From Escherichia phage WPEC2, in the sequence record PV691511.1: a DNA stretch of 64,000 nucleotides; one strand, 5' to 3'. Position numbers and translations under genes: made by a program. Under the pieces are notes generated by a model that made no database searches, was not told the origin of the DNA, and worked only from the letters and a program-made list of their open reading frames with translations. Positions 63,375 through 63,798 of this stretch are shown in pieces; the first letter of the stretch is position 1, and every line of letters starts with the position of its first letter.

Positions 63375-63434
63375 GCGGGAAACCACTTCCCGCCTTATGT
63401 GATAAACTTTACTACCTGGTTTGCCTGCTGTCAA
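63375..63434 (-). promoter_or_regulatory. sigma70-like promoter plus conserved 5'UTR hairpin
   Basis: Minus-strand TTGACA (63429-63434), 17-nt spacer, TAAAGT (63406-63411), then 7-bp GC hairpin GCGGGAA/TTCCCGC (63375-63393) and TCACAAC before ATG at 63360. Confidence 0.5.
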
Positions 63435-63435
63435 A

Positions 63436-63720
63436 TTATTTTTTAATGTTTTGCCCTACAAAGTTGATCACTTCCTTAAGCTGTCTTTCTGTCATGATCG
63501 TACCTGGTAACTCTTCCTTGATTTCTTGCGGTAAATAGATATTACCGCGCCAGGTTAACAAACAACCGTTTTGATCTTCGCAAATGGAATAAGAGAAAAT
63601 CCACTCATTATCATTTTCAAGCTCCCAAAAACACAAAAAGTCTTCTTTCCCTAAGTTTTCAACGGTCAAGCATAATCCGCGACGTGCTGCATAATTAGTT
63701 AGGCTTTTTGTGATTTTCAT
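63436..63720 (-). CDS. hypothetical protein
   Basis: 94-aa ORF with ATG start. Confidence 0.5.
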   Translation of the reverse strand: MKITKSLTNYAARRGLCLTVENLGKEDFLCFWELENDNEWIFSYSICEDQNGCLLTWRGNIYLPQEIKEELPGTIMTERQLKEVINFVGQNIKK

Positions 63721-63742
63721 AATGTTTTCTCTCTTCTTGTGA

Positions 63743-63798
63743 GCGGCACCATTGCCGCCCTACAAGATGAATATTACCAGATTAAACAGGCTTGTCAA
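63743..63798 (-). promoter_or_regulatory. sigma70-like promoter plus conserved 5'UTR hairpin
   Basis: Minus-strand TTGACA (63793-63798), 16-nt spacer, TAATAT (63771-63776), then hairpin GCGGCA/TGCCGC (63743-63758) and TCACAAG before ATG at 63720; same architecture as 63375-63434. Confidence 0.5.

Follow-up and report, generated by a model that had tools for sequence, protein, structure and literature searches.

Promoter-hairpin cassettes in front of small, presumably early genes of phAPEC8-like Escherichia coli myoviruses

The closest described counterparts of the leaders studied here are the promoter-early stem-loop (PeSL) cassettes of T4-like phages (Arbiol et al. 2010, PMC2839356; Comeau et al. 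2014, PMC4122927). As in our phages, a near-consensus sigma-70 early promoter with A/T-rich sequence upstream shares a short intergenic cassette with a G-tract/C-tract stem-loop, and many such cassettes lie in ORFan-rich, plastic regions, where close relatives differ by indels and gene replacements. In one PeSL subclass the stem-loop is located downstream of the -10, as it is in the units described below.

A second comparison is with the 5' stem-loops of ompA and papA (appended to bla). Like the hairpins reported here, these are stable and variable in stem sequence, and they lie a few nt from the 5' end, as is predicted for our units; the downstream RBS is free, and a block of RppH and of the RNase E 5' sensor is expected (PMC3997798). 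Both enzymes require single-stranded 5' ends, so that 5' secondary structure stabilises a transcript; not every E. coli mRNA is stabilised by 5' hairpins, an example being direct-entry decay (PMC3997798).

The phage lambda nut sites resemble our units in that an early-leader RNA hairpin lies just past an early promoter, and a CGCTC present in some of our copies recalls boxA. The boxA consensus is CGCTCTT(T)A, and boxB is a 5-bp stem with a GNRA-like pentaloop. Another stabilising 5'-terminal stem-loop is found in the T7 gene 10 leader. In the literature on rV5/phAPEC8-like phages we found no start-site, transcriptome or stability data and no description of the motif.

Two structured leaders in a phAPEC8-like genome

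The window (the whole stretch analysed, 64,000 nt of Escherichia phage WPEC2, PV691511.1) comes from a Phapecoctavirus (Stephanstirmvirinae), a phAPEC8-like myovirus. A preliminary description had pointed to a repeated promoter followed by a GC-hairpin leader in front of two consecutive genes. Anatomy, folding and promoter scan showed that this arrangement is real and lies on the minus strand (units A and B; Table 1).

Table 1. Coordinates of the features of units A and B (window positions).
Feature	Position	Strand	Basis or remark
Unit A -35 hexamer TTGACA	63793..63798	minus	promoter scan
Unit A extended -10 (TG, one base, TAATAT)	TG 63779-63778; TAATAT 63776-63771	minus	promoter scan
Putative start site of unit A (G, 8 nt past the -10)	63763	minus	predicted from promoter geometry
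Unit A hairpin	63741..63760	minus	folding and covariance-model match, 44 bits
Unit A spacer ACAAGAAGAGAGAAAACATT	63721..63740	minus	unstructured; A/C-rich, then purine-rich with SD
94-aa early ORFan, ATG at 63720	63436..63720	minus	phrog_6147, function unknown; homologue of phAPEC8 gp008
Unit B -35 hexamer TTGACA	63429..63434	minus	promoter scan
Unit B -10 hexamer TAAAGT	63406..63411	minus	17-nt spacer to -35
Putative start site of unit B (A in tatCACAta, 8 nt past the -10)	63398	minus	predicted
Unit B hairpin	63374..63394	minus	folding and covariance-model match, 28 bits
Unit B spacer CACAACAGAAAAA, 13 nt	63361..63373	minus	without Shine-Dalgarno; mosaic junction inside
122-aa ORFan, ATG at 63360	62992..63360	minus	phrog_2510, function unknown; homologue of phAPEC8 gp019

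Both promoters reached 10 of 12 matches in the promoter scan, with AAAAAATAG/TAA in front of these TTGACA-16/17-TAATAT/TAAAGT elements, an arrangement shared by about 38 units of relatives. The -35 of unit A, which is separated from its -10 by 16 nt, directly follows the stop codon (63802-63800) and A-tract of an upstream 36-aa ORF; that of unit B directly follows the stop codon (63438-63436) of the 94-aa ORF. The hairpin of unit A pairs GGGCGGCA (63760-63753) with UGCCGCUC (63748-63741) around an AUGG loop, and that of unit B pairs GGCGGGAA (63394-63387) with UUCCCGCU (63381-63374) around GUGGU. The stems are 8 bp long, including one G.U pair each, rather than the 6-7 bp first proposed. Two extra pairs are possible in unit A (G63763-C and U63762-A), in which case no 5' overhang is left.

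When folded from their predicted starts, the leaders were more stable than shuffled sequences. Unit A reached -15.1 kcal/mol (z = -4.7; none of 200 shuffles equally stable) and unit B -12.8 kcal/mol (z = -3.2; 1 of 200), and the SD and AUG were predicted to be unpaired in the folds of both. The arrangement is also specific within the window: among 116 minus-strand promoter-like sites only those of units A and B had, at 6-14 nt from the -10, a downstream GC stem that is not a terminator, and such a hairpin was absent at the window's other consensus promoters.

The sequence motif singled out earlier fared less well than the architecture. The 10-mer CCGCTCACAA has two exact matches in the 64-kb window, both in units A and B. 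Since its count in the window was not above chance once one mismatch was allowed, we dropped it as a defining motif. It is moreover a composite, whose CTC belongs to the end of the stem and whose ACAA is the start of the spacer, and only a subset of the family described below carries it or the TCACAA(C/G) that had been proposed alongside it as functional. In the suggested search for further copies, the decamer yielded only these two in the window; the architecture recurred in many units of related phages. The significance of the leaders rests on architecture and relatives, not on the 10-mer.

Two matches to other elements could be set aside. The plus-strand TTGTGAGCGG corresponds to the left half of lacO1. 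The sequence behind it, CACCATTGCC or GAAACCACTT, contains no right half of the 21-bp pseudo-palindrome, and the 10-mer is not retained in orthologues, so a LacI-type operator was rejected. An Rfam search of 62900-64000 gave two chance-level matches (E = 0.8 and 7.5), neither of which falls in a leader.

A multi-copy family with conserved spacing and pairing

The two leaders come last in a family of roughly 15-20 copies of a cassette with a strong promoter and a 5' hairpin, located in front of small early genes in rV5-, phAPEC8- and phi92-like E. coli myoviruses. The window holds just these two because it stops at 64000. In relatives we found about 14-18 units per genome, all sense-oriented and confined to one ORFan-rich early block. 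The phAPEC8 genome has about 18 within a block of ~8 kb, namely 14 model matches and about four divergent copies. Its whole-genome scan was a covariance-model search, part of a census of ~290 kb on both strands, in which all 14 phAPEC8 matches were in sense orientation and lay between record position 143.7 kb and the end or at 0.5-3.2 kb. The census found no match in the other 100 kb or more, and in the window it returned units A and B only. All 11 of the 20-mers annotated as 'PHIRE promoter' in phAPEC8 turned out to be the hairpin, again in one block. An 80-nt unit used as BLAST query matched 564 places across 148 phage records, and Phapecoctavirus genomes contained 5-9 each. Justusliebigvirus alia has 13 units of like architecture, and rV5 (Vequintavirinae) has the same architecture with other stems, for example GGGGCAAG/TTTGCCCC, GGGGA/TCCCC and GGTGGA/TCCGCC.

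After removal of redundancy, about 38 units from four phage lineages remained, with 31 distinct hairpins; in all of these the 5' arm is rich in G and the 3' arm in C, and the stems have 5-10 bp. The distance from -10 to stem was 6-11 nt across the 38 units, mostly about 9-11; with a start 7-8 nt after the -10 the predicted 5' overhang would be 0-5 nt, with a mode of 3-4. The distance from hairpin to ATG was looser (17-31 nt), and in essentially all units the predicted folds left spacer, SD and AUG unpaired. Since the units are paralogous, shared ancestry may be part of the reason for the constant spacing within a lineage, and the comparison with rV5 is the main counter to this reading. A few hairpins with conserved spacer/SD geometry have no promoter (phAPEC8 record positions 3550 and 3833; rV5 L008, about 8385).

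What is conserved in the family is the -10-to-stem distance, the pairing with some compensatory changes, the lack of a U-tract and the free ribosome-binding site. Native arm pairs folded at -12.5 kcal/mol compared with -8.5 for swapped chimeras, and 95.5% of cells were paired compared with 38-60% when partners were slid. Compensatory change was present in three of eight stem pairs (GC<->CG at 15:11; GC/GU/AU), as counted in a covariance-model alignment, which favours hairpins with the GCGG core and leaves out most stems of rV5; the covariation score was 0.200 versus 0.098 in shuffles, and none of 500 shuffles reached 0.200. MAFFT alignments of the units were set aside for these pair counts, because their 3' arms slip between loop-length classes. 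The sense strand was favoured over the antisense strand in folding, if weakly (-0.78 kcal/mol, P about 0.04). With about 38 units in four lineages and compensatory change in three of eight pairs, the earlier idea that a conserved structured leader reflects a shared post-transcriptional property is reasonable.

Some sequence is conserved as well. In the model-selected set, a GCGG/CCGC core was invariant in 30 distinct sequences, and within Stephanstirmvirinae, where this core does not vary, the loops are alike (AAUGG, AAUAG, UGG), so that sequence-specific recognition instead of pure structure could be involved. Orthologues of the 94-aa gene in other phages are preceded by a different hairpin followed by CTAACAG; these were harvested via the 94-aa protein in IMG/VR, and the eight loci were used qualitatively, being too few for substitution analysis.

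The block carrying the units is also mosaic. Unit B is itself a recombination junction, at which 5.2 kb of phAPEC8 (record about 2186-7348, gp009-gp018) is missing; the junction lies inside the spacer at a microhomology AGAA (63367-63364), shared over 4 nt by two purine-rich RBS regions, and is not a hairpin-hairpin exchange. In phAPEC8, gp019 has no promoter of its own. Three different genes follow unit B in the window, in WPEC1 and in phAPEC8, and hairpin variants have been swapped before one and the same gene across phages. When homology-block ends between relatives were counted, 11 of 34 fell in a unit or within 30 nt of one, against 6.2 expected (P about 0.03), which is a modest enrichment.

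Compared with PeSLs, these cassettes belong to Stephanstirmvirinae and Vequintavirinae rather than T4-like phages, which makes the likeness architectural and not one of descent. Their stem-loop is essentially fixed at a predicted +1 to +5, unlike the five positional classes of PeSLs. From the ompA-type leaders they differ in forming a multi-copy, promoter-linked phage module whose 5' end and stabilisation are predicted. A lambda-type nut site was rejected, since the order of elements is reversed and the 'boxA-like' CGCTC is a 3' stem arm that is missing from many copies. Here, too, the stems are longer (5-10 bp), the loops (AUGG, UAG, UGG) are not GNRA-like pentaloops, and each genome has at least 14 sites where lambda has two, none of them followed by terminators that would need overriding.

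A putative 5' cap and its alternatives

The promoter-hairpin unit is a real yet fairly ordinary regulatory module. Its best explanation, in which we have moderate confidence on the basis of the sequence comparisons, is that the hairpin would cap the 5' end of multi-copy early cassettes against RppH and RNase E. A cassette takes up one intergenic gap. It comprises A-rich sequence and a near-consensus sigma-70 promoter, about 10 conserved nt predicted to be transcribed first (tatCACATA/GTA), the G-arm/C-arm hairpin with its 5-10 bp, and an unstructured spacer that is poor in U and rich in A and C, followed by a purine-rich SD and the ATG. We infer that host RNA polymerase would start about 7-8 nt past the -10, early in infection, and the hairpin would therefore lie 0-5 nt from the triphosphorylated 5' end. 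In that position it would most likely hinder RppH and 5'-end-dependent entry of RNase E. The hindered decay would give longer-lived early mRNAs, a stabilising function that we likewise infer, with the ribosome-binding site staying open. The cassettes may, because they resemble one another, also act as portable units and as points of recombination or joining within this ORFan block, which is highly mosaic.

The terminal position matters for this model. RNase E easily bypasses internal stem-loops (PMC9943677), so only a 5'-terminal hairpin would protect. For the same reason we rejected a block of RNase E scanning by hairpins that are internal or lack a promoter, as simple stem-loops are readily bypassed (PMC9943677), and the role of a primary 5' cap does not explain the promoter-less copies. 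The preliminary description had instead named an RNase site as one possible form of control. A cleavage target is unlikely, as the geometry fits protection from 5'-end-dependent decay. RNase III processing requires about 20 bp or more of double-stranded RNA, and with stems of 5-10 bp, which are too short, an RNase III site was rejected.

An alternative that we regard as unlikely is a protein recognition site, either as RNA hairpin or as DNA palindrome at +4 to +25, whose protein would switch all early cassettes jointly (an early-to-middle switch, antitermination-like loading or targeted decay). This would fit the invariant core and the similar apical parts within Stephanstirmvirinae, the confinement of the element to one temporal or functional block, and an operator-like location just past the start that is typical of repressors. 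However, rV5 and several phAPEC8 and alia units have very different stems at the same position (GGGGA/TCCCC, GGGGCG/CGCCCC, GGGGCAAG/TTTGCCCC), and the loops there differ too (UGU, AAC, GCUAA). The compensatory GC<->CG changes also argue against it, in an aligned set that is model-biased towards GCGG, and no candidate binding protein was identified.

It is quite unlikely that the hairpin acts as a terminator or attenuator, stopping or damping transcription that arrives from the preceding cassette and leaving each early gene mainly to its own promoter. A T4-type PeSL stem-loop did terminate effectively in a lacZ reporter, and the PeSL subclass with the stem-loop downstream of the -10 provides a parallel (PMC2839356). 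The cassettes are arranged in tandem without other terminators in between, and one GenBank record (ASO2A) has a terminator annotated under the unit. With intrinsic terminators and REP-like elements our hairpins share the character of a GC-rich intergenic stem-loop; they differ in occurring on one strand only, at a fixed distance from a promoter and without a U-tract. Of about 36 hairpins, none had a U-tract (mean 1.2 T in 9 nt, 69% A+C), those of A and B being followed by ACAAGAAGA and CACAACAGA and left unflagged in the terminator scan. Canonical terminators in the same genomes, on the other hand, are A/T-flanked hairpins with T-runs. An intrinsic terminator on either strand was rejected on this anatomy, and the lack of a U-tract makes a 5'-cap role fit better than the terminator role of PeSLs. 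In addition, with a terminator at +4 to +25 a cassette would also cut off its own transcription. Once processed, such a hairpin might have the secondary effect of shielding the 3' end of the cistron before it.

Very improbable, in our view, is a translation module in which a stable local hairpin and an unstructured A/C-rich stretch standardise the RBS region and insulate it from pairing with variable sequence upstream, whatever the promoter. The promoter-less copies, which keep the hairpin-spacer-SD-ATG geometry, would be accommodated by it, as would the fairly constrained hairpin-to-ATG distance and the unpaired spacer, SD and AUG. That distance is nevertheless looser than the one from -10 to stem, and unit B, with its 13-nt spacer lacking an SD, does not contain an intact module.

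We give equally little credence to the more far-reaching proposal that the invariant GCGG/CCGC core and the AAUGG-type loops of Stephanstirmvirinae form the recognition element of a dedicated phage factor. An RNA-binding protein of this kind would time decay or translation of the whole early regulon, and a recombinase or helper would excise and re-insert promoter-gene cassettes as mini-circles; with either factor, the early block would be an actively shuffled, co-regulated 'cassette array'.

Least probable is a mere recombination linker that persists through cassette shuffling with little role of the hairpin in expression: the block ends at units, the exchanged hairpin variants, the three genes downstream of unit B and the mini-circles and shuffling role reported or proposed for PeSLs (PMC2839356) are in its favour, but the window junction is a short microhomology between RBS regions, the breakpoint enrichment is modest, and homologous recombination alone is insufficient to keep structure and spacing across subfamilies despite diverged sequence.

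Meaning for the phage group

The cassette family reveals no new mechanism, and it would account for the local mosaicism of the ORFan block. It also calls for a correction in GenBank, where the features listed as 'PHIRE phage promoters' in phAPEC8 and, in related records, certain 'terminators' are 5' hairpins of host-type promoters. The family further contains over 30 different 5' hairpins, each set at a fixed distance from a strong promoter, a natural library that could serve as a test bed for 5'-end-dependent mRNA decay in infection and as a source of compact expression parts. If the interpretation put forward here is correct, a promoter plus stem-loop cassette design so far known from T4-like phages only would extend to a second, unrelated group, the large rV5-, phAPEC8- and phi92-like E. 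coli myoviruses that are widely used in phage-therapy collections.

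Two promoter-hairpin leaders near the window end

Two intergenic units of identical build lie on the minus strand at window 63798-63358, unit A before a 94-aa ORF and unit B before a 122-aa ORF (see table). In each, a sigma-70 promoter is followed by about 10 nt, a GC hairpin, an A/C-rich spacer and the start codon, and the -35 directly adjoins the stop codon and A-run of the preceding ORF. The promoter scan gave both units 10/12. Folded from their predicted start sites, leaders A (-15.1 kcal/mol, z = -4.7) and B (-12.8 kcal/mol, z = -3.2) formed the hairpin and left spacer, Shine-Dalgarno (SD) sequence and AUG unpaired. 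Since the decamer CCGCTCACAA also occurs in the window at these two sites only, anatomy, promoter scores and fold z-scores bear out the preliminary description of two look-alike promoter-hairpin leaders. Both stems, however, are 8 bp long rather than 6-7 bp, and the decamer, put forward there as a shared motif, is composite: its CTC closes the 3' side of the stem, where it pairs with GGG or GAG, and its ACAA begins the A/C-rich spacer, so that it dissolves as a motif.

Features of units A and B in window coordinates
Unit	Feature	Sequence	Position	Strand	Basis
A	-35	TTGACA	63798-63793	-	sequence
A	promoter spacer	16 nt, TG extension included		-	
A	-10	TAATAT	63776-63771	-	sequence
A	-10-to-stem stretch	tcatcttgta		-	sequence
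A	hairpin (stem / loop / stem)	GGGCGGCA / AUGG / UGCCGCUC	63760-63741	-	
A	hairpin-to-ATG spacer	ACAAGAAGAGAGAAAACATT		-	
A	ATG of 94-aa ORF		63720	-	
B	-35	TTGACA	63434-63429	-	sequence
B	promoter spacer	17 nt		-	
B	-10	TAAAGT	63411-63406	-	
B	-10-to-stem stretch	ttatcacataa		-	sequence
B	hairpin (stem / loop / stem)	GGCGGGAA / GUGGU / UUCCCGCU	63394-63374	-	
B	hairpin-to-ATG spacer	CACAACAGAAAAA	63361-63373	-	
B	ATG of 122-aa ORF (62992-63360)		63360	-	

On the plus strand, 63369-63378 and 63737-63746 read TTGTGAGCGG, identical to the left half-site of lac operator O1. This candidate was rejected, as the right half-site is absent and the 10-mer is not kept in orthologues; the resemblance is most likely a coincidence.

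A conserved family of cassettes

The window belongs to a phAPEC8-like E. coli myovirus, a Phapecoctavirus in the Stephanstirmvirinae. In the phage collection, window 62000-64000 was not spanned in one piece by any record: a 100% match to phage WPEC1 ended at ~63365, within leader B, and 63340-64000 matched elsewhere in WPEC1 and in phAPEC8. In phAPEC8 the window end corresponds to a single ORFan block, which runs from record 143.6 kb through the end of the record, goes on at 1 to 4.6 kb and carries ~18 units of the A/B build. In the GenBank entry of phAPEC8 the sigma-70 part appears as 'host dependent promoter (MEME)' and the hairpin 20-mer GTAGGGCGGCAATGGTGCCG as 'promoter (PHIRE)', with 11/11 PHIRE features inside the block; across records, cassette pieces are annotated inconsistently as 'PHIRE promoter' or 'terminator'. 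Further copies were found in relatives: unit A (80 nt) matched 564 places in 148 phage records, at 5-9 per Phapecoctavirus genome and fewer per genome in Justusliebigvirus and rV5-like phages. We built a covariance model on the hairpin class seen most often and refined it in one iteration; it matched the whole phAPEC8 genome 14 times, always sense and within the ORFan block, and the 64-kb window only at A, with 42-44 bits, and at B, with 16-28 bits. Its sole 'antisense' match, in rV5, is a perfect palindrome. The remaining GC hairpins of the window are all A/T-flanked and terminator-type, and its other consensus promoters lack such a hairpin. We are highly confident that A and B belong to a cassette family.

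Other elements were seen alongside. A/T-flanked palindromic hairpins at window 19546, 22259, 24842, 29523, 41248, 45349, 45661 and 45988 (both strands; e.g. AAGGGGCttcgGCCCCTT) look like bidirectional intrinsic terminators, a class clearly distinct from the leader hairpins. At 32534 (-), outside the early block, an 11/12 sigma-70 promoter precedes another kind of hairpin (CTGCCTTACTCAAGGCAG, ~23-60 nt downstream), after which comes TCTCTTCACAACC; the leader there is of a type of its own. A repeated TTGGCG-18-TAAAAT followed by hairpin GGATGgaatCATCC (WPEC1 4204, 4362 and 6653; phAPEC8 3363) recurs in the early block, inside paralogous small ORFs.

We compared 38 non-redundant units with 31 distinct hairpins from the window, WPEC1, phAPEC8, Justusliebigvirus alia and rV5. 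The best-conserved feature was the -10-to-stem position: in the 38 units the stem starts 6-11 nt past the -10, or 0-5 nt from the start site predicted at the customary distance of 7-8 nt. rV5, of another subfamily, has the same geometry with very different stems, GGCGGGAA/TTCCCGCC, GGGGCAAG/TTTGCCCC, GGGGA/TCCCC, GGGGGC/GCCCC and GGTGGA/TCCGCC and differing loops. Native arm pairs gave -12.5 kcal/mol versus -8.5 for chimeras with other units' 3' arms, and in the model-derived alignment 95.5% of cells were paired versus 38-60% with 3' partners slid by 1-3 columns. Both-sided changes occurred in that alignment at 3/8 pairs (GC<->CG 15:11; GC/GU/AU; GC/AU), with a covariation score of 0.200 versus 0.098 in shuffles (0/500 reaching 0.200). 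The four core pairs GCGG/CCGC were invariant in the model-aligned set, which is uninformative on structure and arises in part from how the model selects sequences. Behind the stem lies a U-poor, A/C-rich segment (on average 1.2 T per 9 nt; A+C 69%) that leads into a purine-rich SD. The promoter-hairpin unit is a real, non-random, conserved regulatory module. Of the shared post-transcriptional control proposed earlier, the structured leader with a shared property holds, while the bases said to matter do not.

The hairpin apex (A-AUGG-U, A-AUAG-U, AA-UGG-UU; phAPEC8, two further loci and window A/B) is more uniform in Stephanstirmvirinae than the stem classes require, for which gene conversion or a role of the loop in recognition could be responsible; rV5 loops are diverse. 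Hairpin copies without promoter, but with spacer/SD/ATG geometry kept, lie at phAPEC8 3550-3565, 3833-3846 and 2377-2412 and rV5 ~8385-8400. Two promoter-less copies have GNRA loops (GCAA, GUAA), and phAPEC8 2377-2412, between gp009 and gp010, holds two overlapping, mutually exclusive hairpins.

Cassettes, genes and a mosaic junction

The hairpin goes with the lineage's cassette, not with the gene. Upstream of the 94-aa gene's orthologue, two IMG/VR phages have GAGCGGGGAAAtggTTTCCCCGC and then CTAACAG, and an unrelated 50-kb viral contig, IMGVR_UViG_2974746064_000001, encodes a 52%-identical homologue; there, a promoter-like intergenic motif (TTGATAGCACTTTTTGTTAAAA...) is repeated before consecutive genes (810-880 and 1170-1240) without a hairpin. 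The window's minus strand aligned with phAPEC8 up to record 2186, 6-9 nt past hairpin B (the gp009 leader), and again from 7348, just before the gp019 ATG, so that 5.2 kb (gp009-gp018) are absent from the window. The junction overlap is 4 nt, microhomology AGAA (window 63367-63364). Cassette B thus precedes a homologue of gp019, which is promoterless in phAPEC8 but has GGAGAG there; the 122-aa ORF has no SD (leader CACAACAGAAAAA-ATG). To judge from these sequences, cassette B now drives the 122-aa gene, whose SD was lost in the fusion. In WPEC1, cassette B stands before yet another gene. Homology-block ends between relatives fell in or <=30 nt from a unit in 11/34 cases versus 6.2 expected (P about 0.03), a modest enrichment.

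Nearby, WPEC1 carries a ~120-nt tandem direct repeat (9395-9640) directly upstream of its 122-aa gene copy, in the place taken by cassette B in the window. Window 60650-62016 (-), immediately downstream of the genes that the cassettes drive, holds three paralogous ORFs in tandem, each 145-151 aa long (N-termini MFKVNAVYCF, MFKEGHVYRF, MFKVGFTYKF).

Candidate function and likeness to PeSL cassettes

A strong host-type promoter, a stable hairpin a few nt from the predicted 5' end, no U-tract and an open RBS, in a design repeated before most genes of the ORFan block and kept across subfamilies despite diverged stems, point to a 5' cap that would lengthen the life of early phage mRNAs, the reading towards which we lean slightly. 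RppH and the RNase E 5' sensor depend on 5' ends that are single-stranded, and this accounts for the long-known stabilisation by secondary structure at the 5' end (PMC3997798); scanning RNase E easily bypasses simple internal stem-loops (PMC9943677), so position at the very 5' end matters. A 5' cap would matter especially if the phage speeds RNase E-dependent decay. Stimulation of RNase E is an activity of the Srd protein of T4. An Srd homologue is described in the rV5 paper (PMC3606486). Secondarily, the hairpin might shield the 3' end of the preceding cistron once the transcript is processed.

Capping of the primary transcript leaves the promoter-less hairpin copies unexplained; an RBS-insulating role, which we rate as unlikely, would account for these. 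A protein-recognition site is kept alive by the invariant core and similar loops but weakened by rV5 and some phAPEC8 and alia units, where divergent stems and loops occupy this position. A pure recombination linker fits the mosaicism of the block but explains neither the conserved structure nor the spacing, and it does not agree with the window's own junction, a microhomology. We disfavour a terminator or attenuator: that role has been given to the stem-loops of PeSLs, the promoter-early stem-loop cassettes of T4-like phages, and shown for one (PMC2839356), but U-tracts are wholly absent after the hairpins, the phage uses canonical terminators elsewhere, and a terminator at this position would halt the cassette's own transcripts. 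A nut site and an RNase III site were rejected on anatomy, as were Rfam families for the leader hairpins.

In the literature on rV5/phAPEC8/phi92-like phages we found no description of the cassette and no start-site data. Among described systems, PeSLs come closest. They combine a strong sigma-70 promoter, an A/T-rich upstream region and a G-tract/C-tract stem-loop, downstream of the -10 in one subclass, and their numerous copies lie in hyperplastic ORFan regions, linked to modular shuffling (PMC2839356, PMC4122927). The A/B stem position is fixed, which fits a 5' cap better than a terminator. The A/B cassettes share four architectural hallmarks with PeSLs but come from another phage group; they resemble PeSLs in build, and probably in working, yet are an independent instance.
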